DNA from: a virus
Reading direction: 5' to 3' (one strand)
IMG/VR virus record: IMGVR_UViG_3300045988_107297
DNA length: 44,764 nt
Shown one piece after another: positions 6,133-36,115 of this stretch (position 1 is its first letter; each line of letters starts with the position of its first letter). A program made the translations under genes and the position numbers. The notes below the pieces were generated by a model. That model ran no database searches. It was given only the letters and a program-made list of their open reading frames with translations, and was not told where the DNA came from.

Positions 6133-9100
6133 ATGCCCTATTCTGACCAGGAAGCGTTTCTGAACGCCTACCTTAAAAACTATGCAAAGGCCCAACAAAA
6201 CGCCGTGAACAGCGGCAAAACCGGCCTGAGCAGCGCCCGCTACACCGGACAGCAGGCAATGAATGCTGCACCCACAACTCTGCCCGACTATGGCGACATT
6301 GCAGGCAGTTTCACCACCGCCTACACGAAGCAGCTGGCGGCCGTTGAAGCCCAGCGCGAGAAGGAAGCGAAGGCAGCCCAGGCAGCAGCAGAAAAAGAAG
6401 CAAGGGCAGCCGCAAGTGCGGCGAAAAAAGCATCCTCTTCCACCACAAAGAGCAAGAAGCTGAAGAAGGAAGAGCTTAAAGCACTGGATGCAGAGCTGGA
6501 AGAACTGGCCAAAACGCGGGTGGCCCTGCAAGAAAGAAAAGAAACCCAAGATGCGAACACCCGCGAGCGCATCAAGGAGAACGTCGGAGACACTGCCGGT
6601 ATTTCCAGCCTTACAGCCGCAAGCAGAACCTTCGCACCTGAAAGGAAAGGCAGTGCCACAAAGAAAAGCCTTTCGCAACGGATTGTCGCTGGCGTGAAAG
6701 GTTTGGCAAAAGTCCCTTCTGCCGTCAAAGACGGCGTTGTGCAAGGCACTGCGCTGCACAACCGGATGAAGGCCGCGCGTGGTGGAGTGTCTGCCGAAGA
6801 TAGTGTGGATTTAGGCGGCGTCCAAACCCCGCAAGCAACGGCAGCAAAACAAAAATCCAGAACCAAAGCCCGAGCCTCTGTAGCAAAGCAGAACTTCACG
6901 ACACAGGAGCTGGATGCACGTCTGACCGCGACAAACCAGCGTATGCGGGAGCTGCAAAAGCAGGGAAAGACCAAAACTCGGGAATACCGGCAACTGCAAA
7001 ACCAGCATGACACCTATGCAACCGCGTTGGGCGTGGACTCTTTTGCTGGCCGCGCAGGCGCAACCGGACTTGGTGCAGTCTCCGGCTTTGCTGCTGGCTT
7101 GGCGAACATGGGCGATGCCACGGCTCGCGCAATCCGTGGTCAGTCTGCAAGCATGGATATTCCGGAGTATGAGGCAGCATCGGACGACCTGCAAGAAGCC
7201 AACGAGCAGCGGGACGCTCTGATTCAGATGGGCCGGGCCTACACCGACACGCCGAACGGCCCTGTCGCTACGCCTGAATTCCAGCAGGTGCTTGACCGCA
7301 TTGCAAGCGCAAAGGGTGTGCGGGCTGAAAATCAAGTAACCCCCGAGCGCAATCAAGTTGTGAGCAATATGCTGGACTTTGCCCAGAACCAGAACCAGAA
7401 AGCACAGGCGGGCCTTGACAACACCGGCCGGTTTTTGGTGGGCACAATCGGAAGTGTCGCGCAGAACCTTCCTGCCTTTGCAGCAGCGGCGGCCGTGCCA
7501 GAAGCTGCCCCCGTTTTGATTCCCGCCCTCATGGGCGTAAGCGCGGCAGGCAACCGGGAAAACGAGCTGGAACAACGCGGTGTGCCTCTGAATCAGGCTG
7601 TGTTGCGCAGTGGCCTGAGCGGCGCAGTGTCCGCCATTACCAACAAGCTGCCCCTTGAGCAGGGCGCAGAACTCATGGCCGGAAACGGCCCCGGTTTTGT
7701 CCGCGCTATGGCCCGGCAAGCACTGAGCGAAGGCGGGCAGGAAGCCTCTGAGTATGCAGCAGACTACGGCCTCGACGTTTTGGCCGGAGACCCGGATGCA
7801 AACTTCAGCCTTGCCGAACTTGGGCAGCAGGCGCTGGGCGGCGCACTGGGCGGCGCAATCAGCGCGGCCGGAAGCTCTCTCATTGGCAGCGGCATGAATC
7901 GCGCAAGAGAAGCGCTTGGGGCCAACGGGAACGCCCCTATGGACACGGATGTGCAGCAGGCAGAACCGGTATCGCCCGCCCCTGAAAACTCCGTATCCCC
8001 CGAACCTGAATCTGTATCACCCAGTGCTGAAACCGCCACACAGCAGCCGCTGGAAGCCACGCAGGAAGGCATTCCGGAGCTTGGCGTGGTAGCACCCGAT
8101 GCAGCCCCGAAAACTGCCATTGACGTGATTGTGGACGCATACCGCAACGGCACGCTGACAAACAAGCAGATTGACCAGCTGAAACCCGGCGGCGAACTGC
8201 GGCAAGCGTTTGAAGAGGCCACGGGCGTAACACTCCCAGACACCAGCAGCGAGACGCGGAAGGCGTTGAAGGCTGGAATGCAGGAAGAAATTCCCTATCT
8301 GCGGCCTGTTGACAGCGCCGAAAACGCGGGTTATGATGGAACCAATGAAGCCTATACAGGAGGTGCGAGCTATGACGGAACTGGAAGAACGAGCGGAAGT
8401 ATTGCGCAACCGGACGGAGAAGGACGAGAGGGAATTCCAGAATTATTACGCAACCCTGAAAACAGGGGGTGGCAAGGAAGCGGCGCAAATAATGTGGCAG
8501 AGAGGAACTCCGTTGGAGGAAATCAAGTATTACATGGACTTCTGACCGATTCCCCAGAAATGCAAGCAGCCCTTGAACGAAGTGGAGCCACACCCCTTGA
8601 GCTGAGAGACACGACCAGTGACCCTCAGCTCTTTTCATCGGCCCTGGAAGAAGCCCGGCAGAAAAATCCCCATGGCCTAATGGTGAGCCCGAAAACCGTC
8701 GAAGAGCTGAACCAGCCCGGAACCCGCACCTTTATGAGCGCAGACAATATGGCCGGTGCGCTGGTGACGGCGGACGGAGACATTGAAGCGGTGTTCAAGA
8801 ACCCGCAAAGTAAGGCGAAGCAGGCGGCAACCTCTCTTTTGATTACTGCCGTGGAAAACGGTGGCCGCAAGCTGGATTGCTATGGCCTTGATTTAGTAAC
8901 ACAATACAACCGAAGAGGTTTTGAAGCAGTCGCCCGTATCCCGTTCAATGCGGGAGCGGTGGAAGACGGCTGGACATATGGCGCGAAAGATGTTTATGTG
9001 ATGAAGCTGCTCGACGGCGTAACGGCGCAAGACATTGCGGGACGATTACGTATGGACGAAGCTGACGGCGGCTTCCATATGCAGACCGATGCAGAGCTTG

Positions 9101-12100
9101 CCAACCTTCCCGTATTCGACGACTACGACGAGGCGCTGGCATACCGCGACAGTCTGCTCACCACCCCCGCCGAAAGCGGCAGCATTCCAGAACTCATGCC
9201 CACCGCAAACCAGAGTGTGCAAGAGCCTATCCCCACATTGGCTGACCACCCCAACACGGTAGGCGCGGCGCAACGGCAATTTGACCGGCCCGAAGTTGCC
9301 AGCCAGAGCCACATGACCCGCGACACAGACAATGATTACCTGCAACCTCTTGTGCAGAGAGATCAAGGCGGTGAGCAACAGTTTACCCACGAGCGCGTAA
9401 GCAACGCAGACCGAATGAAGATTGCGGCCAACAGCATGGAGACCGAAAGCCGCGACGAGATCGTGTCCCGCTTGACCAGCAAAGAGCAGTGGGACGCAGA
9501 TGACACCGCGCTGGCCGGAAGCGTACTACGCGAGTGGGATTCGGCTTTGGGCGATATGGACAAGAGCGGCGAGGCGTACAAGCAGGCCCTTGCCCAGAAG
9601 ATGAAGTTTACCCAGCGGATTAGTGAATCCAACACCATGAATGCGCAAGCACTGCAAATGACGCAGGAGTTTACCACTCCTGAAACCGCCGTGATGCAGT
9701 CGCAGAAGAGCATTAAGACTGCCGTTGACCGTGTAGCAAATGGCAAAAACAAGCGAAAGTTCGACCAATACAAGGGCGATGTGGAGACGGCCGTTGCAAA
9801 CGCAGAGGATACGGCCACGCAAAAAGCCAATGACGCGGTGCAGAAAGCCATTGAAGCTGTGCAGCAGCAGGCCACAGACACGGATGCACAGCCCAGCAAT
9901 GCGACAAAACGCGGCAAGCGGACAGAAAAAACGCAGGATGAGGCGAACCAGCCCTCTGCCGAAGATGTACTGAGCCGCAAGCTGGCGGCTGCCGTAAAGC
10001 GGCACGTAACGGACGGGAAAGAATCCAGTGTTGAGGACGTTGTACAAAGCGAAATGCTTTCCCAGCTGACCAAGATGGCGACAAGCGACACCGAAAAAGG
10101 TGCACGGCCCCAAAAGCCGAAGCTGACGGTTGAGGAAAAGCTGCAAACCGCGTTGGACAATCAAGAGACATACTCGCGGGTATGGGAAGCGGCAAAGGAA
10201 GCGCTTGCCGAAAGGTACAAAGACAACGCTGATATGAGCAGCCGCCTGCAAGCATTCTTCGATGACGCCGGAGAATCCGGTTTGTACGGAAAAGACACGA
10301 TAAAGCAACTTGTGTCCAAGTACACCAAAGACCAGGGGATTGACTTCAAGGCCCTAGTCAAAAAAAGTCGCGGAGACAAACAGGCTACCCTCCGGGAAAT
10401 TCAGGATCGCATTCAAGACACCTTCGACATGGACGACACGCAAGCCCAACGTATCGCCGAAATGGCCATGAACGAGTATTCCAAAGCATTGTCGGAAGCG
10501 GCGGACGCAAACCTGAAAGCCATCCGGGGCGGGAAAGGCAAAACGAGCAAGTCCACGCACGACCAATTTTTGGAGCTGTTGCGCATGGGCGTTTACGATG
10601 AAGGCGACGTGCAGGCGTATGCTGCATCCAAATTCGGTGTGCAGCCGTTGACCGCCGAACAGTGCCAGCAAATTCTCGACCTTGCAGAGCGGGCGGAACA
10701 GCTCCCCGTGAACAGCCGTGACCGGGTGTTGATGGAAAGTGAGGTAGCAACGATTGCGGCCCAAAATCTGAGCGGCTCTTTCCGCGATGCATGGGACACA
10801 TGGCGCTACACATCCATGTTGCTTAGTGCCCGTACCAACGAAAAAAACATCGGCGGCAACGTGTCGATGGGCCTGAATGCCCGCGCAAAGGACGTTGTTC
10901 TTGCAGCCATGGAGTGGATGATTAACAAAGTTGCCCCTGGAAAGGTTGAACGCACAACGGCGATTGTAACCCCGTTCACCGAGAACGGTCGCGCACTGCT
11001 TGCAGCTTCCGCCAACGATGCCGACTTGAACAGTTATCGTCAGCTTTCCGGCACAAGCGAGCGCATGAATCTGGCGCGGGACATGCAGCGGCACCGCGAA
11101 GCCTTCCGGAGCCTTGCATCCCCTGATAGTAACAACATTGTAACCAAGTTCCTGTCCGCTTTGGACAGCCTAGCTGCAAGGGCAAGCGCGCCACTGGAAG
11201 TCTCCGACTATGAGGGCACTTTTGGTGTATTGGAAGGTCTGCGCGGCATTAACAAAGCCATGGATGCCGCGATTGACTGGATTCAGGATTCTGCTGCGAG
11301 TGGCACAAACAAGGGCGTTCTCGGCGTTGCTGGCCTGAAAAACAACTATGCGTGGTCGTTGGCGCAATACCTCAAAGCAAACGGCGCAGACGCAAGCATT
11401 TTCGACGCGACGGACGCGCAAAGCCTGGCTCTGCTTGACAAGGCCAGAGCACACGCCATCCAACAGGCGTTGATTAACACCTACCATGCGGAGTCCAAAA
11501 CGGCCTCTGCCGTGGCCAAATTCAAGGCCGACTTGCGAGGTTCCGACAACTTTGCATCCCGTGTGCTGGGCGACATCGTGGAAGGCCAGCTGCCCTTTGT
11601 GAAAACGCCCATCAATGTGGCAAAGCAGAGCTTGCAGTATAGCCCGCTGGGCTTCGTGTCTACTGCCGCCGAGGGCGTAAAGGTTGCGCGTGGAACTGGC
11701 GATGTAAACCTTATGCTCGACCATGCGGCGGCTTCTGTCACCGGCAGCGTGTTGTTTGCTCTGGGCGGAATTTTGGCCGAGAAGGGCTTGCTCACCGCTG
11801 GAATTGGGGACGACGAAAAGGACAAGGCAAATCTGGAAGGCCGCCAAGAATACAGCCTCCAGCTGGTGGACGACGACGGGAAGCTGCACAGCTACACCAT
11901 CGACTGGGCCAACGCTGCCGCTATTCCGATGTTTGCCGGAGCAGAGTATGCAAAGCTGGCTGCAAGTGATGGGGCCTCTCTGAATAGCGTTGCGTCCGCG
12001 TCTCAACAAGTGCTTGAGCCTCTGCTGGAAATGTCCTTCTTGCAGGGCTTGAATAACAACCTTGAATCTCTGCGCTACTCCGAGGATCCTTACATTTACG

Positions 12101-12909
12101 GCATGGCGAAACAATCCCTGAGCAGCTATGCAACACAGGGTATTCCAACGCTTGCCGGGCAAGTCGCCAGAAGCATTGACCCCGTGCGGCGCAGTACATA
12201 CAGCGGCACGACCGGCATTGAATCCGACATCGGCTACACGGCAAACAAAATCCGCAACAGAATCCCGTTCCTGTCCGAGACTGGGCAGCCGTACATTGAT
12301 GCATTCGGCGACACCCAGTCGAATACCGGCGGAAGTTTTGCCGGGCGGCTGGCATACAATATGTTCTCCCCCGGCTACTATTCCGAGACGACGGACGACC
12401 CCGTGAAGCAGGGTGTGCTGGATTTGGCCAACAGCTCTGGAGACAACAGCGTAATTCCGGAAGTCGCAGAAAAGAAAGTGTCTTGGACAGTTGACAAGGG
12501 AAAGCACACCTACCAGCTTTCTCCGCAAGAATACACCGACTTTGCAACACAGCAAGGCCAACTGCGCAAGGACATGGCAGAAGCCGTGTTGGATTCCCGC
12601 TACACCGAAGAGCAGCAAGTGGAGCTTATCCCGGAGCTGTACGGCACCGCAGGCAAGATTGCGGCTCTGGACATTGTGCCCGACTTCTCCGTTGGCACCG
12701 AAGAGCGGAAGCGCATTGATATCTACAATCAGTATGGCATTGATGGGCTGATGAACTGGATTGCCTACCGGAAGTATGCGAACACGGACGGCAAGACGGG
12801 CATTAACCAGAGCGAGGCCCGTGCATGGCTGAATGACAGCGACATGAGCGATGCCATGAAGGATGCATTCTGGGCGGCGAGTTCGTCCAACTGGAAATCT
12901 TCTCGATGA
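6133..12909 (+). CDS. giant 2258-aa multi-domain protein (candidate virion-packaged ejection / polyvalent protein)
   Basis: One uninterrupted ORF with RBS AAGGAGG. It has an Ala/Lys/Glu/Gln-rich N-terminus, a hydrophobic stretch (nt about 7424-7560), a GNAT-like looking module (nt about 8620-9020) and a long C-terminal globular region. Confidence 0.8.
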   Translation: MPYSDQEAFLNAYLKNYAKAQQNAVNSGKTGLSSARYTGQQAMNAAPTTLPDYGDIAGSFTTAYTKQLAAVEAQREKEAKAAQAAAEKEARAAASAAKKASSSTTKSKKLKKEELKALDAELEELAKTRVALQERKETQDANTRERIKENVGDTAGISSLTAASRTFAPERKGSATKKSLSQRIVAGVKGLAKVPSAVKDGVVQGTALHNRMKAARGGVSAEDSVDLGGVQTPQATAAKQKSRTKARASVAKQNFTTQELDARLTATNQRMRELQKQGKTKTREYRQLQNQHDTYATALGVDSFAGRAGATGLGAVSGFAAGLANMGDATARAIRGQSASMDIPEYEAASDDLQEANEQRDALIQMGRAYTDTPNGPVATPEFQQVLDRIASAKGVRAENQVTPERNQVVSNMLDFAQNQNQKAQAGLDNTGRFLVGTIGSVAQNLPAFAAAAAVPEAAPVLIPALMGVSAAGNRENELEQRGVPLNQAVLRSGLSGAVSAITNKLPLEQGAELMAGNGPGFVRAMARQALSEGGQEASEYAADYGLDVLAGDPDANFSLAELGQQALGGALGGAISAAGSSLIGSGMNRAREALGANGNAPMDTDVQQAEPVSPAPENSVSPEPESVSPSAETATQQPLEATQEGIPELGVVAPDAAPKTAIDVIVDAYRNGTLTNKQIDQLKPGGELRQAFEEATGVTLPDTSSETRKALKAGMQEEIPYLRPVDSAENAGYDGTNEAYTGGASYDGTGRTSGSIAQPDGEGREGIPELLRNPENRGWQGSGANNVAERNSVGGNQVLHGLLTDSPEMQAALERSGATPLELRDTTSDPQLFSSALEEARQKNPHGLMVSPKTVEELNQPGTRTFMSADNMAGALVTADGDIEAVFKNPQSKAKQAATSLLITAVENGGRKLDCYGLDLVTQYNRRGFEAVARIPFNAGAVEDGWTYGAKDVYVMKLLDGVTAQDIAGRLRMDEADGGFHMQTDAELANLPVFDDYDEALAYRDSLLTTPAESGSIPELMPTANQSVQEPIPTLADHPNTVGAAQRQFDRPEVASQSHMTRDTDNDYLQPLVQRDQGGEQQFTHERVSNADRMKIAANSMETESRDEIVSRLTSKEQWDADDTALAGSVLREWDSALGDMDKSGEAYKQALAQKMKFTQRISESNTMNAQALQMTQEFTTPETAVMQSQKSIKTAVDRVANGKNKRKFDQYKGDVETAVANAEDTATQKANDAVQKAIEAVQQQATDTDAQPSNATKRGKRTEKTQDEANQPSAEDVLSRKLAAAVKRHVTDGKESSVEDVVQSEMLSQLTKMATSDTEKGARPQKPKLTVEEKLQTALDNQETYSRVWEAAKEALAERYKDNADMSSRLQAFFDDAGESGLYGKDTIKQLVSKYTKDQGIDFKALVKKSRGDKQATLREIQDRIQDTFDMDDTQAQRIAEMAMNEYSKALSEAADANLKAIRGGKGKTSKSTHDQFLELLRMGVYDEGDVQAYAASKFGVQPLTAEQCQQILDLAERAEQLPVNSRDRVLMESEVATIAAQNLSGSFRDAWDTWRYTSMLLSARTNEKNIGGNVSMGLNARAKDVVLAAMEWMINKVAPGKVERTTAIVTPFTENGRALLAASANDADLNSYRQLSGTSERMNLARDMQRHREAFRSLASPDSNNIVTKFLSALDSLAARASAPLEVSDYEGTFGVLEGLRGINKAMDAAIDWIQDSAASGTNKGVLGVAGLKNNYAWSLAQYLKANGADASIFDATDAQSLALLDKARAHAIQQALINTYHAESKTASAVAKFKADLRGSDNFASRVLGDIVEGQLPFVKTPINVAKQSLQYSPLGFVSTAAEGVKVARGTGDVNLMLDHAAASVTGSVLFALGGILAEKGLLTAGIGDDEKDKANLEGRQEYSLQLVDDDGKLHSYTIDWANAAAIPMFAGAEYAKLAASDGASLNSVASASQQVLEPLLEMSFLQGLNNNLESLRYSEDPYIYGMAKQSLSSYATQGIPTLAGQVARSIDPVRRSTYSGTTGIESDIGYTANKIRNRIPFLSETGQPYIDAFGDTQSNTGGSFAGRLAYNMFSPGYYSETTDDPVKQGVLDLANSSGDNSVIPEVAEKKVSWTVDKGKHTYQLSPQEYTDFATQQGQLRKDMAEAVLDSRYTEEQQVELIPELYGTAGKIAALDIVPDFSVGTEERKRIDIYNQYGIDGLMNWIAYRKYANTDGKTGINQSEARAWLNDSDMSDAMKDAFWAASSSNWKSSR

Positions 12910-16256: not shown

Positions 16257-16285
16257 TTGAAAAATAGCCACTTGGCTACTATAAT
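16257..16285 (+). promoter_or_regulatory. early rightward promoter (TTGAAA-17 nt-TATAAT)
   Basis: -35 TTGAAA at 16257-16262, -10 TATAAT at 16280-16285, with an exact 17-nt spacer. Confidence 0.65.
16265..16278. promoter_or_regulatory. operator palindrome TAGCCACTTGGCTA
   Basis: A perfect 14-bp palindrome lies inside the promoter spacer. An extra half-site AATAGCCA lies at 16222-16229. Confidence 0.6.
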
Positions 16286-17365: not shown

Positions 17366-17602
17366 ATGACACGACCGACTTTAACCATCACTGAGTGCTG
17401 TGAGGTGCTTCGCGCCAACAACATTTCTGTGGACAACAAGGGTCTGGCGGCCGCCATTGAAGCGGGCCGTCTCCCGTGGGCGGTAGCCATGAACGCCCCC
17501 GGGGCAAAGCTCCAGCCAAAAATCTTCAAGCACAAGCTGGCCCGGTGGCTTGAAGAAATGACCGGGCATCCCCCCGTTGCCATTGAGCCCGAATGGCTCT
17601 GA
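17366..17602 (+). CDS. small DNA-binding protein (excisionase-like?)
   Basis: RBS AAGGAGG. The call rests on its 78-aa size and its position after the antirepressor. There is no strong motif. Confidence 0.4.
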   Translation: MTRPTLTITECCEVLRANNISVDNKGLAAAIEAGRLPWAVAMNAPGAKLQPKIFKHKLARWLEEMTGHPPVAIEPEWL

Positions 17603-18205
17603 AATGCGGCGGCAATGCACCGAGAACCTATGCAAAGGCTCGGCAATGTCTAGCTTCGCGGCGGCATTGAGTGGATGTGCAAGGCACAGCCACGGAATTG
17701 CATAGATGAGCAATGGCATGGAAAGGATTTGCGACGGATTAGCTACGCTGGGCAGAGCAAGGGAGAAGCGTTGAGTTGCCGCGGAAAAGCTACGATCTGC
17801 GACGGAAAAGCGCAGAGGTGAATTGCGGCGGAACTGAAGCGCACAGCGAAGCAGGGCAAAGGAGATGCGAAGCGACGATTAGCACCGCGCCACACCGCGA
17901 TGGATATGCAATTAACCGCGAAGCTATGGCACAGATTCGCGAAGAATTGACAAGCAACGGATACGCGAGGCGATGATACGAGATGGCGAAGATTTGCAAT
18001 GCTCGGCAGTGGCGAAGCAAGGCATGGACGCGCATGGCATAGGAATCGCAAGGACGGGCTCCGAAATGCAGTGGCATGGCGGTGCAACGAATTGAGTTGC
18101 CGAGGAAAAGCTCTGATTCGCAATGGAAAGGCTGAGCCACGACTTGCTGAGCAACGGAGCCGCAAAGAAAGCGAAACAAACACAATAAAAACGGAGGATT
18201 TAACG
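17603..18205. repeat. purine-rich non-coding region with degenerate iteron-like repeats
   Basis: At least 11 copies of a word close to GAT-N-TGCGA-N-GGA (for example 17725-17738, 17793-17806, 17819-17832, 18114-18127). A ~45-nt direct repeat pair lies at 17771-17815 and 18092-18135. All + frames are broken by stops. Confidence 0.7.
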
Positions 18206-18862
18206 ATGGAAAAAGCTTTGAAAATCAGGCTTACTCTGCTGGAAGAGGCGCTGGGCAGCAGCCCCAGCAATGAGGACTTGTTGGGCACGTACATTGCCAG
18301 CAAAGCCCCCAACGAAGAGCTATCCGCTCAGGAGGTGGAAAACATCAAGGCCCAGCAGGCCGAGGATCGCGCGACGGTGTTCCCGAAGCTGGCAGACGGC
18401 ACCCCCTTCATCTGGGACTACCAGATTAAAGGAATGTTCAAGGACAGCTGCAAGATGCTGGCCAAAGCCGGGAAAGCTGGCTATCCCGGCGGGAAGGCTT
18501 GTGCCGCCATCAAAGCATACAAACAGGCCATTGATGGGTTGCTCTTTGTAACCCCCCGTGAAATCCCCTTCAACCTGAACGGTATGAAGATGGACTACTG
18601 CGAACGGTCTTTGCGGGCCGACACTCCTATGGGGCCGCGTACCAGCATTGCGAAGTCGGAAAGCGTCCCGGCGGGCAGCACGTTGGAATTTGAGATTGAG
18701 TTGCTCGACCCGAAGCTGGAAGCCATGGTGCGGGAGTGCCTGGACTACGGCAAGCTGCGCGGGCTGGGCCAGTGGCGCAACAGCGGTAAGGGCCGCTTTG
18801 TGTGGGACTTGCTGGACGCAAGCGGCCGAATTATCGGCGGGAATAACGAGTTTGAAAAGTAA
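18206..18862 (+). CDS. RAMP / Cas7 (Csm3/Cmr4)-like protein, 218 aa
   Basis: RBS ACGGAGGA before ATG 18206. Four RAMP-like motifs occur in order: KIRLTLLEEALGSSP, PFIWDYQIKGMFKDS, GPRTSIAKSESVPAGSTLEFEIEL, and LRGLGQWRNSGKGRFVW (glycine-rich loop). Confidence 0.5.
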   Translation: MEKALKIRLTLLEEALGSSPSNEDLLGTYIASKAPNEELSAQEVENIKAQQAEDRATVFPKLADGTPFIWDYQIKGMFKDSCKMLAKAGKAGYPGGKACAAIKAYKQAIDGLLFVTPREIPFNLNGMKMDYCERSLRADTPMGPRTSIAKSESVPAGSTLEFEIELLDPKLEAMVRECLDYGKLRGLGQWRNSGKGRFVWDLLDASGRIIGGNNEFEK

Positions 18863-26736: not shown

Positions 26737-26992
26737 TGCTGATGCGTTGATGAATGAGCTGATACGCCTTGGGTATGCGTATAGCGAAAAAGAACAGCGG
26801 GCCGTGGTTGCGGATTGTATCGAATGCGTGGAGGAAGCGCACACTGTTAAGGCTGAGGAAGCGACACGGTGCAGGGATTGCGTCAATTGCCAAAATCCTG
26901 TGCATAATTGGTGGTATTGCAAAATGACTGGCCTGACTGTAAGCCCTGATGGATTTTGCAGCGATGGAGAAAGGAAAGAAGAAAATGGATGA
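26723..26992 (+). CDS. hypothetical Cys-rich protein, paralogue of 26268..26609
   Basis: RBS GAAAGGAGGATGG. The sequence contains RCRDCVNC...PDGFCSDGERKE. Confidence 0.6.
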   Translation: MRTIDADALMNELIRLGYAYSEKEQRAVVADCIECVEEAHTVKAEEATRCRDCVNCQNPVHNWWYCKMTGLTVSPDGFCSDGERKEENG

Positions 26993-27179
26993 GCTGAAGA
27001 AATACCCGTTTTGCGGCGGAAAAGCTGCCGTGTTTGTGCACAACGGCGTGAAGGTTTTGTGCCTCACCTGTGGCGCGCAGACCGATTCCCACATTGATTT
27101 TATGATGCGGCCCGGCCATAGCTCCAACGCCGTGCAGCAGGTCGTGGACGCATGGAACAGGAGGACTGACAATGGCTAA
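26985..27179 (+). CDS. Lar-family restriction alleviation-like zinc-ribbon protein
   Basis: YPFCGGKAAV...CLTCGAQ...VVDAWNRR matches the Lar_restr_allev pattern. Confidence 0.55.
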   Translation: MDELKKYPFCGGKAAVFVHNGVKVLCLTCGAQTDSHIDFMMRPGHSSNAVQQVVDAWNRRTDNG

Positions 27180-27847: not shown

Positions 27848-28303
27848 ATGATTAAAGACAGCGGAGATCGCCGGGAGTACGCAACCGGCGCGGTTAGAGA
27901 CATGGCGGAGGGAAAAGGCCGGTGTGACCTGCTTCCGCTTGATGTTGCGGCCGTGATATTGCAAGATAGTAAGGTCATGGGGCGGATTGCAGAGTTTCAA
28001 AGAAGCGAAAAAGCGTTTTTTTTGTATGAGGCGCTTGACAATTTTTGCGAAAGTTGCGACTGGGATGTTACAACCATGTTGCTGGAAGTCGCAAAGCACA
28101 TGGAAGAGGGCGCCAAGAAGTACGGCGAACGCAACTGGGAAAAGGGGCTGCCGGTCGATTGCTACATTGACAGCGCGGTACGGCACTACCTTAAATGGCG
28201 GCGCGGAGACTGGGACGAGCCGCACGACCGGGCGTTTTGCTGGAATGTGATGTGCTGCATCTGGACAATCATGCACAAGACTGAAAAGGGGTGCGAGCAA
28301 TGA
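27848..28303 (+). CDS. DUF5664 / dATP-dGTP pyrophosphohydrolase-like protein
   Basis: SGDRREYATGAVRD..GKGRCDLLPL...GAKKYGERNWEKGLP...RHYLKW. RBS GGGAGGAG lies before ATG 27848. Confidence 0.55.
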   Translation: MIKDSGDRREYATGAVRDMAEGKGRCDLLPLDVAAVILQDSKVMGRIAEFQRSEKAFFLYEALDNFCESCDWDVTTMLLEVAKHMEEGAKKYGERNWEKGLPVDCYIDSAVRHYLKWRRGDWDEPHDRAFCWNVMCCIWTIMHKTEKGCEQ

Positions 28304-29294: not shown

Positions 29295-29329
29295 GTTTCA
29301 ATCCACGTCCCCCGCACGGGGGGGACGAC
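29295..29329 (-). repeat. solitary type I-C-like CRISPR repeat unit
   Basis: The minus strand reads GTCGTCCCCCCCGTGCGGGGGACGTGGATTGAAAC. Compare the I-C repeat GTCGCGCCCCGCACGGGCGCGTGGATTGAAAC. There is a single copy, no spacer array and no cas genes. Confidence 0.7.
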
Positions 29330-29332
29330 ACA

Positions 29333-29749: not shown

Positions 29750-29827
29750 GGCTATGTCCTCCTTTGGCCTGCCTCATCAGTACCGGGCGGCCATCCCCGG
29801 CAGACGGCCCGAAGGCCGTTTCGGCTG

Positions 29828-30181: not shown

Positions 30182-30204
30182 GGTTATTCCCTCCTTCTTT
30201 GTGT

Positions 30205-30279
30205 ACCCATGAGCGCCCACCCCTTACGGGGTGGCCGGGCTTGCACCGGCGGCGCGTGAGCGTCGGCCTTGCGGGTCAG
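30205..30279 (-). ncRNA. 75-nt structured intercistronic element, copy A
   Basis: About 80% identical to 32246..32320. Three hairpins are preserved by compensatory changes. The strand assignment is assumed from the operon direction. Confidence 0.5.
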
Positions 30280-31064: not shown

Positions 31065-31964
31065 TCACAGGTCGAGCGCTGAAATCTCATCCAGAGCCCG
31101 GCGGGCGGCGCGCTTGCCGTTGTCGGTGAGCTGGCGCTGCCATGCCTGGTTGCGGGGGGACCAGCGGAAAGCCCACTTTTTGAGGATGGCGCGGACCTCT
31201 TCGGCGGGTTTGCCGTCAAAAATCAGCTGTACCCGCATTTGCTCGGGGTCCTCGCGGTAGGTGATGCCGTCGTGGTCCACTTCGGCGGGGGCGGCTTCCT
31301 GGGCGGCCTGCAGGCTCTTCAGCCGCTGCTCAACGCGTTTTGCGTTGGCGAGCGAGTTTGTCAGTACATAGGACGGGTAAGGGGTACCGACGTACCAGCC
31401 ACGCGCCCACATGGCCTCAATCCCATTCTGGGCGGCCGGGGTCAGCTCCGGGCACCCGTCCAGGGTACCGTTCTTCCGATAGTAGGCATTCACGGCCTTC
31501 ATCGCGGCGTGCTCCGCCTTCAGGCCCTCCAGCTTTGCGGTCAGGGCCTCGATCGCCTCGGGGTCGTTGCTCTTGATGGGCTGGGTGTGGGCGGTGCGGA
31601 GTAACTGCAAGTAGTGCTCTGCCCGGTTAAAGGTCTCCCGGTTAGCGTCCCACGCGGCCACCTGCTTGGCCTTCTTCGCGGTCGGGAAATTGCCAGCGCC
31701 GGAGATCATGACGGACGGGCACCGGGTGCCGATCTCGTTGTCACGGTTGATGGCCTCCGCCAGGGTTGCGGCGTACCGGTCAAGCAGGTATTCGGCGCGG
31801 TCTCGCTGCGCCTCGGTGGCGCACTTGGCTTTGACGGTCTCCAGGATTCGCGCGGCCTCGTCCACCTGGGCGGTGTAGCTGGCGGTTGCGCTCCCGGGCT
31901 GGTAGTCGCTAAAGCTGCGCATCTCATGCGCCCGGCGGGCGGTGTCCTCGTTGATAGTGTACAT
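31065..31964 (-). CDS. DUF3560-like protein (299 aa)
   Basis: The C-terminus LIFDGKPAEEVRAILKKWAFRWSPRNQAWQRQL resembles the DUF3560 module seen in conjugative elements and polyvalent proteins. Confidence 0.55.
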   Translation of the reverse strand: MYTINEDTARRAHEMRSFSDYQPGSATASYTAQVDEAARILETVKAKCATEAQRDRAEYLLDRYAATLAEAINRDNEIGTRCPSVMISGAGNFPTAKKAKQVAAWDANRETFNRAEHYLQLLRTAHTQPIKSNDPEAIEALTAKLEGLKAEHAAMKAVNAYYRKNGTLDGCPELTPAAQNGIEAMWARGWYVGTPYPSYVLTNSLANAKRVEQRLKSLQAAQEAAPAEVDHDGITYREDPEQMRVQLIFDGKPAEEVRAILKKWAFRWSPRNQAWQRQLTDNGKRAARRALDEISALDL

Positions 31965-32210: not shown

Positions 32211-32245
32211 GGTGTAGCCTCCTTGTAGATGTGCTAGGGCTTTCA

Positions 32246-32320
32246 ACCCATGAGCGCCCGCCCATCTGGGCGGCTGGACTTGCACCAGCGGCGGCGGATG
32301 CCGTCGGCCTTGCGGGTCAG
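32246..32320 (-). ncRNA. 75-nt structured intercistronic element, copy B
   Basis: Paralogue of 30205..30279, with the same length and the same position relative to the flanking ORFs. Confidence 0.5.
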
Positions 32321-34245: not shown

Positions 34246-34318
34246 GCCGTCATAGCTCAGTTGGCAGAGCGGCTGCCTTGTAAGTAGCAAGCCGAGGGTT
34301 CGAGACCTTCTGACGGCC
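34246..34318 (+). tRNA. tRNA-Thr (anticodon UGU)
   Basis: Manual fold: GCCGTCA acceptor, GCTC/GAGC D-stem, GCTGC-CTTGTAA-GTAGC anticodon arm, GAGGG-TTCGAGA-CCTTC T-arm, TGACGGC. CCA is not encoded. Confidence 0.85.
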
Positions 34319-34428
34319 CCCCAAGGCCGATGACCCGCTAAAATATTTTGTCTGTGTCCAGGTGGGATTTCGCGGCAGGCCTTCCCCGCGCGCCTCTCTC
34401 TGATGCGTACCATGCGGGGCTTTTTTAT

Positions 34429-34502
34429 TGGGCTGTGGCCAAACGGTAAGGCATGGGACTTTGACTCCCAGATAGCAGGTTCGACACCTGCCAGCCCATC
34501 CA
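34429..34502 (+). tRNA. tRNA-Gln (anticodon UUG)
   Basis: Manual fold: TGGGCTG/CAGCCCA acceptor, GCCAAACGGTAAGGC D-arm (as in bacterial tRNA-Gln), TGGGA-CTTTGAC-TCCCA anticodon arm, GCAGG-TTCGACA-CCTGC T-arm. CCA is encoded. Confidence 0.85.
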
Positions 34503-34633
34503 ATGGGTGAGCCGGGCACAGGATAAGCCCGGAGGGCGGGAACGGGGTGTGCGTGCAAATAGATGGGCAAGCGGGAAAGCCTCCGCCCAGTAAGGCCCTG
34601 CAATGGGTCTGCGCACAAGGGAAAGGAAGAAGT

Positions 34634-36115
34634 ATGGCAGGATTTGCAGACGTAAGAAAAGCGGAAGCGAAATACTGCATGGAGCATCCGGCCTACTTCG
34701 TGGAAACGTATGTTCACATTGAGGACAAGGACGCGGCCGAACTGATTGTCCCCTTCAAGTTGTGGGACGGGCAGAAACAGGCATTGCAGACGTTTGCGAA
34801 CGACCGGCTGGTTGTTGTACTGAAAGCGCGGCAGCTTGGTTTTACATGGCTTGCGTTGGCCGAGGCAAGCAGGCTGTTGGCTTTGAATACGGGCCGAACA
34901 GTCGTTGGCTTGTCCAAAACAGAGGAAGAGGCAAAAGAGCTTGTGCGCCGCATGGGCGTGGTTCTGCGTTATATGCCGGAATTCATCGCAGAGGAAGGCG
35001 CTGTGCCCGCCGGGTGGAGCGGCCCTGTTTTCAAGGCCTCTGCATTGGAGGTGCGGATAAAGTGGCCAGACGGTCCGGAAGGCTCGTTCAAGGCGTTTTC
35101 TTCGTCCCCCTCTGCCGGTCGTTCATTCACGGCTGATTTAATCATCATCGACGAATGGGCGTTTCAGCAGTTCGCGAGAGAAATCTGGCAGGCTGCTTTT
35201 CCTGTTGTCAACCGTCCCACGGGTGGCCGGGTCATTGGCCTGTCCACAATCAAACGTGGAACACTGTTTGAGGAAATCTACACAAACCCGGACAACGGGT
35301 TCACGAAACTTTTCCTGCCGTGGAGTGCTGACCCCCGCCGGGATGAAGCATGGTACAAACGAACTCTGAACGCGCTGGGCGAAGATGAAACCTATCAGGA
35401 GTACCCCGCAACTGTAGATCAGGCGCTGGAAGTCCCCGGCGGCGCGTTCTTCCCAGAAGTGAGGAAGGAAACCCATTGTGTGGATAAACTGCCCGCAAAG
35501 GGCAGGCGCTATTGCGTGATGGACTACGGCCTTGATATGCTGAGCGTCCATTGGGTAAACATTGATGTAACAGGCCATGCCTGTGTGTACAAAGAGTATA
35601 ACGAAAGCAATTTGCCCATCGGCGCGGCGGCTGAAACCGTCTTGAAGCTGTCGAAGGGCGAAGAAGTTGAGTTGTTCTTGGCCCCCTCTGACCTGTGGGG
35701 ACGCAGCCAGGAAAGCGGCAAGAGCCGGGCGCAGCTGTTCCTTGAAGCGGGACTTCAATTGGTGCAGGTGAGCCGGGACTTCCCTGCCGGATGCGCGGCC
35801 ATGAAGGAATGGTTCCGAATTGACCCGGCGACTGATACGGCATGGCTGACAATGTACAAGACCCCGACACTGTTGAGGTGCCTACAGAAAATTCAAAAAG
35901 ATGAGCGCAAACCGGACGTTTACGCAAAAGAACCGCATAGCTTGACACACTCCGTGGATAGCTTGCGGTATTTTTGTGTCTGGTGGACGGCGCCCGCCGA
36001 GGCCACGCAAACAAGGAAGCACGTCACATGGGAATCTGACCTGTGGGAGGATTACTACAACGCTGACGAAGAGGGCAAGGCTTACATGATTCAGAAATTT
36101 GGAGACCCGTTTTGA
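34634..36115 (+). CDS. terL: terminase large subunit
   Basis: Walker A-like VVVLKARQLGFTW, Walker B DLIIIDEWAF, nuclease-domain CVMDYGLDMLSV. RBS GGAAAGGAAG lies before ATG 34634. Confidence 0.85.
   Translation: MAGFADVRKAEAKYCMEHPAYFVETYVHIEDKDAAELIVPFKLWDGQKQALQTFANDRLVVVLKARQLGFTWLALAEASRLLALNTGRTVVGLSKTEEEAKELVRRMGVVLRYMPEFIAEEGAVPAGWSGPVFKASALEVRIKWPDGPEGSFKAFSSSPSAGRSFTADLIIIDEWAFQQFAREIWQAAFPVVNRPTGGRVIGLSTIKRGTLFEEIYTNPDNGFTKLFLPWSADPRRDEAWYKRTLNALGEDETYQEYPATVDQALEVPGGAFFPEVRKETHCVDKLPAKGRRYCVMDYGLDMLSVHWVNIDVTGHACVYKEYNESNLPIGAAAETVLKLSKGEEVELFLAPSDLWGRSQESGKSRAQLFLEAGLQLVQVSRDFPAGCAAMKEWFRIDPATDTAWLTMYKTPTLLRCLQKIQKDERKPDVYAKEPHSLTHSVDSLRYFCVWWTAPAEATQTRKHVTWESDLWEDYYNADEEGKAYMIQKFGDPF

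Follow-up and report, generated by a model that had tools for sequence, protein, structure and literature searches.

What does a lone Cas7-like protein do in the early region of a temperate phage, away from the partners with which Cas7 proteins work? The open reading frame examined here lies in a window of 44,764 nt (the whole stretch of viral DNA analysed, IMG/VR record IMGVR_UViG_3300045988_107297), and a first-pass annotation had read its product as an orphan Cas7-family RAMP protein of Csm3 size, encoded behind a long non-coding leader. The reading frame is real: its translation gives a 218-aa protein containing all four sequence motifs quoted in that annotation, and a ribosome-binding site, GGAGG (18193-18197), lies 8 nt upstream of the ATG. 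A longer in-frame alternative from 17999 (287 aa) is of low complexity and runs within a repeat array, and we therefore take 18206 as the start. The upstream gene stops at 17602, which leaves a gene-free stretch of 603 nt before the RAMP gene, in agreement with independent gene calls on the contig. The supposed leader thus stands as a gene-free segment but not as an ordinary leader, since it consists of a phased array with a unit of ~5.16 nt. The gene order (integrase, two repressors, Cro, Bro-N/ORF6C antirepressor, RAMP gene, Gp157/Gam-like, ERF-like, NinB, SSB, replication initiator and DnaB) identifies the locus as a phage early region, as had been proposed, and the phage as temperate. Upstream of the array, the sole strong promoter match on the + strand is the site before cro listed in Table 1, which presumably drives a transcript carrying both the array and the RAMP gene; no terminator-like site was found on this strand between 16200 and 20400.

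The gene is a cas homologue in a viral genome that stands apart from arrays and cas operons, and the description as an orphan holds. Neither Tandem Repeats Finder nor Rfam found a CRISPR array, and none of the genes called within ~10 kb on each side of the RAMP gene belongs to a Cas Pfam family; over the same interval, the Cas5/Csm4, Cas10 or Cas14, and Cas11 partners of a CRISPR-Cas effector module are absent, together with their array. The phased array in the window lacks the 23-50-nt repeats and unique spacers of a CRISPR array. A solitary CRISPR repeat, also claimed for this genome, did not withstand inspection: it corresponds to an Rfam CRISPR-DR9 match at 29295-29331 on the minus strand, whose 23.3 bits (E=0.74) fall short of the gathering score of 45, and which therefore provides no evidence for such a repeat.

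The assignment to the Cas7 family is carried by structure. AlphaFold models the 218-aa protein with confidence (pLDDT 92.7, pTM 0.87), and the top 50 Foldseek matches in the PDB are all Cas7 backbone subunits (E 9e-9 to 1e-5, probability 1.00, TM-score 0.44-0.63), out of 160 matches with E<=1e-3. In this model, the product has a Cas7/RAMP fold with a predicted RRM/ferredoxin-like core and an inserted hairpin. Its structural relatives include type VII Cas7, Csm3 and Cmr4, with type VII Cas7, and not specifically Csm3, as the best match; the protein resembles these type VII and type III Cas7 proteins in fold, in length (~200-220 aa), and in combining an RRM-like core with a long hairpin and, near the C-terminus, a glycine-rich loop. 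It departs from them in an identity of only 11-16% to Cas7 chains in solved structures, in falling outside the Pfam RAMPs model, and in an extra helical insertion modelled at residues 18-55.

At the level of sequence, the only significant profile matches are to RAMP proteins: searched against PDB sequences, the family profile matches type VII Cas7 (E=9.1e-6) and Csm4 (E=9e-4), with an alignment spanning the glycine-rich loop, which bears out the loop singled out in the first-pass annotation. Curated cut-offs are not reached by the Pfam RAMPs model or by the NCBIfam Cas7/Csm3 models. Pfam returns zero matches for the window protein even at E<=10, and its RAMPs family (PF03787) matches one of 85 family members (E=0.055); NCBIfam reports Csm4 alone, with 12.5 bits where the cut-off is 55; PHROGs gives no match; and the PADLOC model Cas7_IIId matches weakly, with E=0.0013 for the protein in the window and, among the 12 of 85 members that it recognises, 5.3e-6 at best. 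Likewise, an hhalign comparison of the family profile with one Csm3 sequence was not significant (E=0.18). The claimed likeness to Csm3 and Cmr4 is therefore supported at the level of fold, not of sequence. Since the hhalign alignment covers 16 columns only, it establishes no residue equivalence to the catalytic Asp of Csm3 (D32 in the S. epidermidis protein), which belongs to the loop that follows beta-1; Glu13, invariant in a 16-sequence alignment of closer members, and the Glu-Glu consensus of the family at positions 13-14 are candidates only. We conclude that the protein is a very diverged Cas7-fold RAMP that is no longer part of a CRISPR-Cas locus.

Three conserved elements stand out within this fold (Table 1). 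The first precedes and enters a helix modelled at residues 71-90; it aligns with helix alpha-1 of type VII Cas7 below significance (domain score -2.3), and we take it to be the counterpart of the motif PxIPGSSxKGxxR of type III Cas7 proteins such as Csm3. The second, a long hairpin, is possibly the Cas7 'thumb', judging from its topology. The third, the glycine-rich loop GLGQWRNSGKGRF, is kept across 85 members and aligns with the loops of type VII Cas7 and Csm4.

Table 1 Features of the RAMP gene and its array in the window.
Feature	Position	Strand	Basis
Promoter-like site TTGAAA-17-TATAAT, early rightward, upstream of cro	16257..16285	+	11/12 consensus matches; consensus only
Phased short-unit array, ~110 units G-[C/A]-[A>G/T]-N-N	17603..18180	+	Autocorrelation, spectrum, 26-nt stacking, segmentation, shuffles
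A-rich spacer and ribosome-binding site of the RAMP gene; array extends to its edge	18181..18205	+	Sequence
RAMP gene, Cas7-fold 218-aa protein	18206..18862	+	Translation, model, structure and profile matches
Alpha-1 start motif DGTPFIWDYQIKGMFKD, codons 63-79: P67, D71, Y72, G76, invariant K79	18392..18442	+	Conservation in 85 diverse members
Long beta-hairpin, codons 130-154: invariant R134; near-invariant R137, T140, G143, R145, S151, E152	18593..18667	+	Modelled secondary structure, conservation
C-terminal glycine-rich loop YGKLRGLGQWRNSGKGRF, codons 181-198, RAMP hallmark: invariant W190, G196	18746..18799	+	Conservation; PDB sequence alignments

The stop codon of the upstream gene marks the beginning of the array. 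About 81% of its units are pentamers and 18% hexamers, the extra base of the hexamers being G, and the hexamers recur every 4-6 units, so that a coherent register of 5.16-5.2 nt is maintained (composition: G 33%, A 31%, C 21%, T 15%). Its Fourier power at 5.18 nt is 19.6, compared with 2.40 ± 0.46 and a maximum of 5.3 in 1000 dinucleotide-preserving shuffles (z=37); the signal is unique to this segment within the window, and the repeat-rich character noted earlier is thus far beyond chance. Tandem Repeats Finder does not report the array, and Rfam 15 has no match to 17603-18205 even at E<=1. RNA folding of the array does not differ from that of shuffled sequences (MFE z -0.97 and -0.07), and with the absence of an Rfam match this led us to reject a structured-RNA reading of the leader; nor are array transcripts clearly less structured than a background of the same GC content (z -0.2 to +1.6).

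The same design recurs across the family, in which arrays range from 30 to >200 units and from 150 nt to >1.1 kb. Among 8,913 units in 116 arrays, position 1 is occupied by G in 95% of cases and by C in 1%, and the mean unit length is 5.163 ± 0.029 nt, with associated proteins only 45-97% identical. This period is near-constant across lineages and host GC contents, and it stays while the primary sequence of the array turns over fast. The register is kept by the placement of the hexamers, whose additional base at the phase slip is G in 92% of cases: their fraction varies between arrays by half the binomial expectation, and their spacing has a variance of 2.5, against 26 for a random arrangement. 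The G anchors stay within 0.45 nt of an ideal lattice across stretches of hundreds of nucleotides, and phase coherence holds over up to 145 units. We also note that a period that is at once non-integer and phase-coherent is not expected of a simple RNA filament with one subunit for every n nucleotides.

Array and gene are linked reciprocally and almost exclusively. In 146 of 166 related loci the array adjoins the RAMP gene, upstream, downstream or on both sides and often 3' of the gene, and in all 146 the G anchor is on the coding strand of the gene. Conversely, when the array pattern was searched on its own, 110 of the 119 matches had a RAMP gene no more than 1.25 kb away, on the same strand in 110/110. 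Among phages with an ERF-type recombinase, the periodic signal next to the gene is 6.4-12.5 in all 13 RAMP-positive loci, whereas none of 40 RAMP-negative loci exceeds 5.2. Sibling phages differ by a single insertion of 0.77-1.06 kb that holds gene and array between duplicated ribosome-binding sites; the two are gained or lost jointly, as one accessory cassette. The linkage persists in unrelated phage backbones and in remote members, one of which has a G/T-rich array of >1.1 kb that retains only the G anchor and the period; in one distant member (L286) no array is detectable. The arrays have no promoter or terminator of their own and always lie between a stop codon and the next ribosome-binding site, as is also the case in L116 and L354, where the array ends at the ribosome-binding site of the next gene. 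This strict linkage lends strong support to two of the roles suggested at first, namely a protein partner of a phage RNA and an exapted ssDNA/RNA-binding factor. A further protein partner, such as the products of small downstream open reading frames (~87 aa and ~50 aa), was considered and rejected, since no neighbouring gene family is common to more than 43 of the 146 loci (clustering of the + strand only). As a separate observation, the constant orientation of the arrays could have been inherited by tandem duplication without selection on strandedness.

We read the array as the protein's own nucleic-acid lattice, bound cooperatively, with gene and array forming a two-part accessory cassette, and put the probability of this reading at about one half. 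In the mechanism that we envisage, the array would be transcribed as part of the early operon, and RAMP subunits would assemble on it cooperatively, at about one for each unit with its G anchor, by means of the conserved Cas7-type elements, i.e., the alpha-1 start motif, the basic hairpin and the loop rich in glycine that contains an invariant Trp. The ~110 units in the window could then carry a filament of roughly 110 subunits. Cas7 backbone subunits polymerise along single-stranded RNA with a fixed nucleotide register, holding it in an extended, periodically organised form. From the Cas7 homology and the invariant Trp in the glycine-rich loop, we infer that a single-stranded ligand is favoured; binding of the protein to the array, one subunit per unit, with RNA rather than DNA as the ligand and an accessory biological role, is the most likely arrangement. 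Because the cassette is dispensable and early-expressed, this role is probably an accessory one, e.g., counter-defence or the control of early transcripts, rather than replication. A replication origin or a core recombination function was rejected as the primary role, as the cassette is absent from intact siblings and occurs with unrelated replication modules.

The proposed pairing would differ from known uses of Cas7 in what is bound and in where it is encoded. The ligand of Cas7 effectors is a guide RNA, gripped independently of sequence in a canonical register of exactly 6 nt, whereas the partner of the phage protein would be a genome-encoded, degenerate 5-nt lattice with a G anchor; at 5.163 ± 0.029 nt, the linked arrays do not have the 6-nt register. 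Cas7 effectors also come with a CRISPR array and cas partners, whereas the phage gene has neither nearby and no conserved neighbour. Another point of comparison is TRAP, an oligomer that reads single-stranded RNA through G-containing (G/U)AG triplets separated by 2-3-nt spacers, i.e., a 5-6-nt repeat with one subunit per repeat. The phage array, known from sequence alone, is similar in its short G-containing repeats of 5-6 nt. However, TRAP is a beta-sandwich 11-mer ring that reads 9-11 repeats, whereas the phage system combines 30 to >200 units with a RAMP fold and a non-integer, long-range register.

Beyond the pairing itself, we tentatively entertain a CRISPR-derived but CRISPR-independent 'self-templated filament', in which a phage descendant of Cas7 polymerises on a lattice written in the genome and the register encodes the geometry. 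Such a filament, a nucleoprotein in the megadalton range that forms in cis at an early stage of infection, might shield phage nucleic acid from, or titrate, host RNA-guided or nucleic-acid-sensing immunity. Were this possibility true, it would define a new class of counter-defence and a way of reading sequence through an incommensurate phased lattice.

The rival that survives best, although we regard it as unlikely, is a reading of the array in the form of duplex DNA. The protein would then contact G:C pairs every 5.16 bp, half a turn of a helix with 10.33 bp per turn, and coat two opposite faces of the DNA. Array and protein would together form a cis element and its binder, which might, e.g., act as a roadblock or timer within the early operon, resemble a centromere, condense DNA or nucleate spreading. 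A half turn of B-DNA is the best-known ruler of ~5 bp, and twice the array period (2 x 5.163 = 10.33) is near the helical repeat of B-DNA, which hints at such a ligand. The period has the properties that this reading calls for, being non-integer, coherent over up to 145 units and constant across lineages and host GC contents; a slip base that is mostly G is expected where a point of a rigid lattice falls between two positions, and no selection against RNA structure beyond composition is seen. Ferredoxin-like viral origin-binding domains provide a precedent, in that they read short duplex repeats, GAGGC pentamers in the case of SV40 T-antigen and GAGC tetramers in that of AAV Rep; these proteins share with the phage system a ferredoxin-like alpha/beta domain and G-rich direct repeats of 4-5 bp. 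Their sites, however, comprise 4-5 repeats in an essential origin served by HUH or SF3 replication proteins, whereas phages can do without the cassette, which occurs irrespective of the kind of replication module; this argues against a primary origin, and no viral origin-binding protein is among the top 50 structural matches. All significant structural relatives are instead ssRNA-binding Cas7 proteins, and the conserved motifs are those with which Cas7 contacts RNA. A duplex reading also sits poorly with an anchor that is nearly always G (95% of units, against 1% with C), in a single orientation and always on the coding strand (146/146 loci, 110/110 pattern matches). Furthermore, the array spectrum has no 10.3-nt component and successive units show no GC/GA alternation, as would be expected for alternating DNA grooves or dimers, even though successive half-turns present different grooves. 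Finally, no partition NTPase is linked to the array.

A decoy subunit that poisons host effector complexes, the remaining role in the first-pass annotation, has lost ground, and we consider it improbable. On this account, the protein enters host type III or type I effectors or titrates their subunits, and the array is incidental or a pseudo-crRNA. Orphan viral cas genes are established as anti-CRISPRs, and the report on them (Katz et al., 10.1101/2023.06.24.545427) describes a situation like the present one: a lone cas-derived viral gene in an accessory position with no array or operon. The examples given there retain recognisable similarity to host cas genes, with no cis-encoded repeat lattice described, and the RAMP family is not named in the passages on the search for orphan viral cas genes (10.1101/2023.06.24.545427). 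The phage protein, by contrast, is only 11-16% identical to solved Cas7 chains and, in the window, has no Pfam RAMP match, which makes conserved interfaces with host Cas10, Cas11 and Cas5 doubtful. The cassette is accessory, moron-like and early-expressed, in keeping with a decoy, and in one distant locus (L287) the RAMP gene is flanked by two AcrVA2-like genes; beside the RAMP gene in the window, however, there is neither a known acr gene nor an aca-type regulator. A family of 1,580 clusters at 50% identity, spread over genome bins of many assigned bacterial lineages, does not fit a single cognate CRISPR subtype, and the strict linkage to an array of 5.16 nt, not the 6-nt register of Cas7, is left unexplained. 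AcrIIIA1 shows that a phage protein can act with RNA against type III CRISPR-Cas, and is thus a precedent in principle, but it differs in that it is not reported as a Cas homologue, binds host tRNA/tmRNA fragments without a cis-encoded array, and targets Csm2 (PMC11662646).

Just as improbable, in our judgement, is a toxin-antitoxin-like or abortive-infection system with type III logic, in which a harmful RNA-binding or RNA-cleaving RAMP is held in check by an excess of sites on a co-transcribed repeat RNA. The general layout is that of toxI-toxN, where a repeat array directly adjoins the protein gene: the phage array lies beside the gene of its expected binder, in one transcription unit and a single inherited cassette. 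Some Cas7 proteins (Csm3, Cmr4) are RNases, which would supply a toxic activity, but no catalytic residue could be assigned in our comparison with one Csm3 sequence. ToxI repeats are ~36 nt long and near-identical, a terminator separates toxI from toxN, and in CsrB the repeats are structured GGA hairpins; in both systems the repeat RNA titrates or neutralises its binding protein. The phage cassette departs from ToxIN and CsrB-CsrA in its protein fold and in having a phased lattice. Its units are degenerate and 5 nt long, not near-identical repeats of ~34-45 nt; array and gene are not divided by a terminator, and in many loci the array lies on the 3' side; and the structure matches do not show a ToxN/AbiQ-like fold. 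Moreover, the cassette belongs to a lytic early operon, whose expression would not be expected in the lysogen.

The least probable account, that the array is a mere untranslated spacer or a translation or stability element hitch-hiking with a gene whose product acts elsewhere, draws on the arrays always ending at a ribosome-binding site and on their purine-rich sequence with many Shine-Dalgarno-like words, but a spacer needs neither a lattice exact to ±0.45 nt over hundreds of nucleotides nor a period conserved at 5.163 ± 0.029 nt amid rapid sequence turnover, and would not be essentially confined to the neighbourhood of the RAMP family, on either or both sides of the gene.

If the protein reads the array, it would be a Cas7 descendant that works outside CRISPR-Cas, with a sequence-specific lattice encoded in the genome in place of the guide RNA, and would extend the viral exaptation of CRISPR components. 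It would also embody a new recognition rule, one G anchor per 5.16 nt, with the phase maintained across hundreds of nucleotides. The choice between a single-stranded filament and half-turn reading of duplex DNA is a structural question posed by sequence data alone, and the module is common, with natural siblings that carry or lack the cassette. Even if its role is modest (e.g., autoregulation), the array would be a ready-made binding scaffold of high valency.

The family comprises 4,414 clusters at an identity of 90% and 1,580 at 50%, and the genome bins in which it is found are assigned to many bacterial lineages. Its carriers are temperate phages, with prophage copies mostly in genome bins of gut Clostridia, and some very large phage-like contigs. 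When the region was compared with INPHARED phages by megablast, no match was obtained, PLSDB plasmids contain no homologue, and tblastn recovered only four unannotated faecal metagenome phages, so there is no cultured phage or experiment to draw on; our literature search found no published description of the RAMP family, the array or their pairing. Since neither Pfam nor PHROGs matches the protein and both Tandem Repeats Finder and Rfam miss the array, the cassette represents a large piece of gut-phage 'dark matter'. Covariation between protein residues and motif variants of the array is weak and confounded by phylogeny. A tandem RAMP-RAMP fusion (P0156) was considered as a proxy for subunit packing and dropped, as it is a singleton on a 1.7-kb contig without fused relatives. 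In four loci, a signal of period 6.0 near the gene arises from the coding sequence of a hexapeptide-repeat protein and is unrelated to the array.

The protein encoded by the first gene after the leader is present as the first-pass annotation had described it, a 218-aa product with GGAGG 8 nt 5′ of the ATG of its gene, and the long non-coding leader is likewise real: 603 nt separate the RAMP gene from the preceding gene, which ends at 17602, and this gap is also gene-free in independent gene calls on contig ena:ERZ27229825:k119_160374, which encodes the identical protein. The surroundings are those of a phage early region, as had been proposed, and of temperate-siphophage type. The minus strand carries integrase and two repressor genes, and a promoter-like site is followed by Cro, a Bro-N/ORF6C antirepressor, a 78-aa ORF, the gap and the RAMP gene, 3′ of which come small ORFs and then Gp157/Gam-like, ERF-like recombinase, NinB, SSB, replication initiator and DnaB genes. 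The nearest prophage copies (76–80% identity) are in Gemmiger and Subdoligranulum genomes. The L161 gene calls place in the same early operon a gene for Lar-type restriction alleviation (PF14354) and another whose product has a dGTP_diPhyd_N domain (PF18909); thus, known or likely host-interference genes lie further along the RAMP transcription unit.

The earlier assignment of the protein to the Cas7-family RAMPs holds at the level of the fold. The A1 profile, built from 85 diverse members of a family comprising 4,414 clusters at 90% identity (1,580 at 50%), retrieves only three PDB sequences at E<0.1, all CRISPR RAMP proteins, namely a type VII Cas7 (E=9.1e-6) and two Csm4 proteins (E=9e-4 and 0.06), with alignments to type VII Cas7 and Csm4 that span the hairpin and the glycine-rich loop. 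The PADLOC profile Cas7_IIId matches the window protein over most of its length (E=0.0013) and 12 of the 85 family members. The AlphaFold model built with A1 is confident (pLDDT 92.7, pTM 0.87), and Foldseek against the PDB, the structure comparison proposed earlier, returns Cas7 backbone subunits alone among its best 50 hits (type VII Cas7, Csm3 from four species, Cmr4 and a type III-D fusion; E from 9e-9 to 1e-5, TM-scores 0.44–0.63), with 160 hits at E≤1e-3. At the level of sequence families, however, the assignment does not hold: Pfam RAMPs matches 1 of the 85 members (E=0.055), and hhalign of the family against one Csm3 sequence stays below significance and yields no placement of a catalytic Asp. 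For the window protein itself, Pfam and PHROGs give no match and NCBIfam only weak sub-threshold ones. A 50% identical viral protein in BFVD bears the name 'Cas system-associated RAMP superfamily protein', and in nr the names of some entries were taken over from a type III-A Csm structure; both read like automatic assignment from structure matches. Rare, single-contig proteins (P0212, P0288, P0306/P0308, P0156) fuse the RAMP domain to a PLD-like nuclease, an RNase T-type exonuclease or an SF1 helicase, one of the set being a tandem RAMP–RAMP fusion; gene calling may have created these proteins artificially, or they may reflect genuine links to nucleic-acid enzymes.

The gene-free stretch shows a sharp spectral peak at 5.2 nt (power 15.8 against a window-wide median of 1.1), no other region of the 44.8 kb exceeding 3.3, and the array interval scores 19.6 compared with 2.40 ± 0.46 in 1000 dinucleotide shuffles (z=37). 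Stacked at 26 nt, it displays G columns spaced 5-5-5-5-6 and fixed columns that exclude T. Another phage backbone (PolA/VapE/SNF2 type, loci L162–L166) has a similar gene-free stretch 5′ of its RAMP gene, and both stretches are T-poor with autocorrelation peaks at lags 5, 10–11, 15–16, 21 and 26. EM/Viterbi segmentation of 116 non-identical arrays into 8,913 units yields the consensus G (95%), C (56%) or A (34%), A (51%), N, N, with 81% pentamers, 17.7% hexamers (sixth base G in 92%), 1.3% tetramers and a mean length of 5.164 nt. The placement of hexamers is non-random: gaps between them peak at 4–5 pentamers, with a variance of 2.45 compared with 26.2 under a geometric distribution, and neighbouring hexamers occur 31 times against 260 expected. 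The G anchors follow the ideal lattice x0 + 5.163k with an SD of 0.45 nt, which rises to 0.88 nt when unit order is shuffled, and each of 10 long arrays has a higher spectral power than any of its 30 unit-order shuffles. Mean unit length per array (5.163 ± 0.029 nt, range 5.08–5.22) and hexamer fraction, whose between-array spread of 0.021 is half the binomial expectation (0.045), are kept over host GC contents of 41–62% and 16 protein clusters. The primary sequence is not: even where the RAMP proteins are 97% identical, one array has 31 nt (about 6 units) inserted and 16 nt (about 3 units) deleted relative to the other, and at 82% protein identity the array middle is barely alignable. Tandem Repeats Finder did not report the array, Rfam matched no family to it even at E≤1, and RNA-folding tests led us to reject a structured RNA. 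A period-6.0 signal near four loci is unrelated to the array; its source is a gene 3′ of the RAMP gene in one clade (L025, also L013, L015 and L023) that encodes a 442-aa protein of (Y/S)GNAxV-type hexapeptide repeats and gives a strong period-6/18 DNA signal.

Gene and array are closely linked. Of 166 loci retrieved by way of the protein, 146 have a strong array directly adjoining the RAMP gene, which ends at the ribosome-binding site of the gene or starts at its stop codon, in some loci on both sides; the other 20 include several short or truncated contigs and several with a weaker adjacent signal in a 300-nt scan. The anchor is G on the RAMP coding strand in all 146, and internal order is alike in most arrays (C at +1.3, A at +2.6 and T at +3.4 nt). 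In the reverse test, a degenerate 12-anchor pattern carrying no protein information found at least 119 viral loci; among the matches listed, 110 lie no more than 1,246 nt (median 204 nt) from a RAMP homologue, always on the same strand, and the nine others are mostly near locus or contig ends or of low periodicity. In phages with an ERF-type recombinase and at least 4 kb of upstream sequence, all 13 RAMP-positive members have a periodic signal beside the gene (6.4–12.5), compared with 0 of 40 RAMP-negative members above 5.2. Sibling phages with flanks 90–97% identical differ by one insertion of ~773 nt, the RAMP ORF plus ~165 nt of array, between two copies of the ribosome-binding site AGGAGGAAA; a second pair differs by ~1.06 kb. 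Besides the array, no neighbouring gene is common to more than 43 of the 146 loci. Together, gene and array thus form a compact, mobile, dispensable ('moron'-like) cassette, which is absent from PLSDB plasmids and cultured phages. On a remote 181-kb contig (logan:SRR26786790_4516, L287), a 279-aa RAMP precedes a 2.1-kb gene-free stretch of which >1.1 kb has a 5.1–5.15-nt periodicity; this array is rich in G and T instead of G and A, which leaves the G anchor and the period as the sole universal features. In another remote contig, arrays flank the gene on either side. No 5.16-nt array was detected within the locus of a distant 265-aa RAMP on a 254-kb, 32% GC contig (L286); this lineage may lack the array, or its array may have diverged beyond what the scan can recognize.

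In Cas7 proteins, the loop after β1, the start of α1 and the glycine-rich loop contact crRNA. The conserved RAMP positions in the 85-member alignment and model concentrate in these elements (L16 and G17; P67, D71, Y72, G76 and K79; G186, Q189, W190, R191, N192, G194 and G196, respectively), and a basic hairpin (R134, R137, R145) is additional to them. In both arrangements the array is an intercistronic stretch from a stop codon to the next ribosome-binding site, and no promoter or terminator of its own was found; it is therefore transcribed together with the RAMP gene. In the simplest model, RAMP subunits would bind the array cooperatively, one per G-anchored unit, with the G held in a pocket formed by the invariant Trp and polar residues of the glycine-rich loop. 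We favour the transcript over DNA as the ligand, given that single-stranded RNA is what all significant structural relatives bind and that the anchor keeps strictly to one strand, the sense strand; the constant orientation could be inherited by tandem duplication, and the array transcript shows no clear avoidance of RNA structure. The weak point of the transcript filament is that the period is non-integer and phase-coherent, whereas a simple filament with n nucleotides per subunit predicts an integer, canonical Cas7 taking 6. A single strand held in a uniform extended conformation, in the continuous groove of a helical protein polymer, could act as a ruler in which the nucleotides per subunit need not be a whole number, as is known for filamentous-phage coats. 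The ruler could also be duplex DNA, 5.16 nt being half a B-DNA turn (10.33 bp per turn). The G that forms the extra base at phase slips fits any rigid-lattice model, and the association between RAMP residues and array motif is weak.

As intact siblings lack the cassette and phages with unrelated replication modules carry it, the data support an accessory, early role outside core replication. By analogy with orphan viral cas genes, counter-defence is plausible; other possibilities are a toxin–antitoxin-like pair and a role in autoregulation or in timing the early genes downstream. The suggestion that the protein is a decoy subunit acting against host CRISPR is unlikely given its extreme divergence and the many bacterial lineages whose genome bins contain the family, and it leaves the array unexplained. 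On the 181-kb contig, two AcrVA2-like genes (PF26125) flank the distant RAMP gene and its gene-free stretch, and ankyrin-repeat and STIV_B116-like genes lie nearby; this region may be an anti-defence island of a very large phage-like contig.

Full-text literature searches found no description of the RAMP family, of phage Cas7 orphans paired with a repeat lattice or of a 5-nt phased array in phages, and the module lacks defining features of each of the nearest known concepts. The protein alone is a new, very divergent Cas7-fold member, already flagged as RAMP in automated-looking database names; as far as can be told, protein plus lattice is a new kind of element.

The solitary CRISPR repeat reported earlier for this genome is probably a non-significant Rfam CRISPR-DR9 match. 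Elsewhere in the window, a minus-strand block with a primase-like gene has three ribozymes between its small ORFs, and these appear to be intercistronic elements whose self-cleavage processes a polycistronic phage transcript. A D12-methyl RNA motif overlaps the end of tRNA-Gln and reaches up to the 522-aa ORF.

Features of the window and of related loci
Feature	Position	Strand	Detail
2,258-aa ORF	6133-12909	+	single ORF; product without recorded Pfam family
Promoter-like site	16257-16285		precedes Cro
Array	17603-18180	+	
RAMP gene	18206-18862	+	
Lar-type gene	~26985-27179		
dGTP_diPhyd_N gene	~27848-28303		
CRISPR-DR9 match	29295-29331	-	sub-threshold, 23.3 bits vs 45, E=0.74
Hammerhead type II ribozyme	29763-29826	-	64 bits
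Twister-sister ribozyme	30200-30279	-	85.8 bits
Primase-like gene	31065-31964	-	phrog_19458, E=1e-83
Twister-sister ribozyme	32241-32320	-	78.3 bits
tRNA-Thr(tgt)	34246-34320	+	with tRNA-Gln, directly 5′ of 522-aa ORF
tRNA-Gln(ttg)	34429-34502	+	
D12-methyl RNA motif	34497-34544	+	51.6 bits vs gathering score 57, E=1.4e-6
522-aa ORF	34547-36115		
Hexapeptide-repeat gene, L025	6850-8178		
Distant RAMP gene, L286	8001-8798		
AcrVA2-like gene, L287	6815-7843		
AcrVA2-like gene, L287	11253-12308
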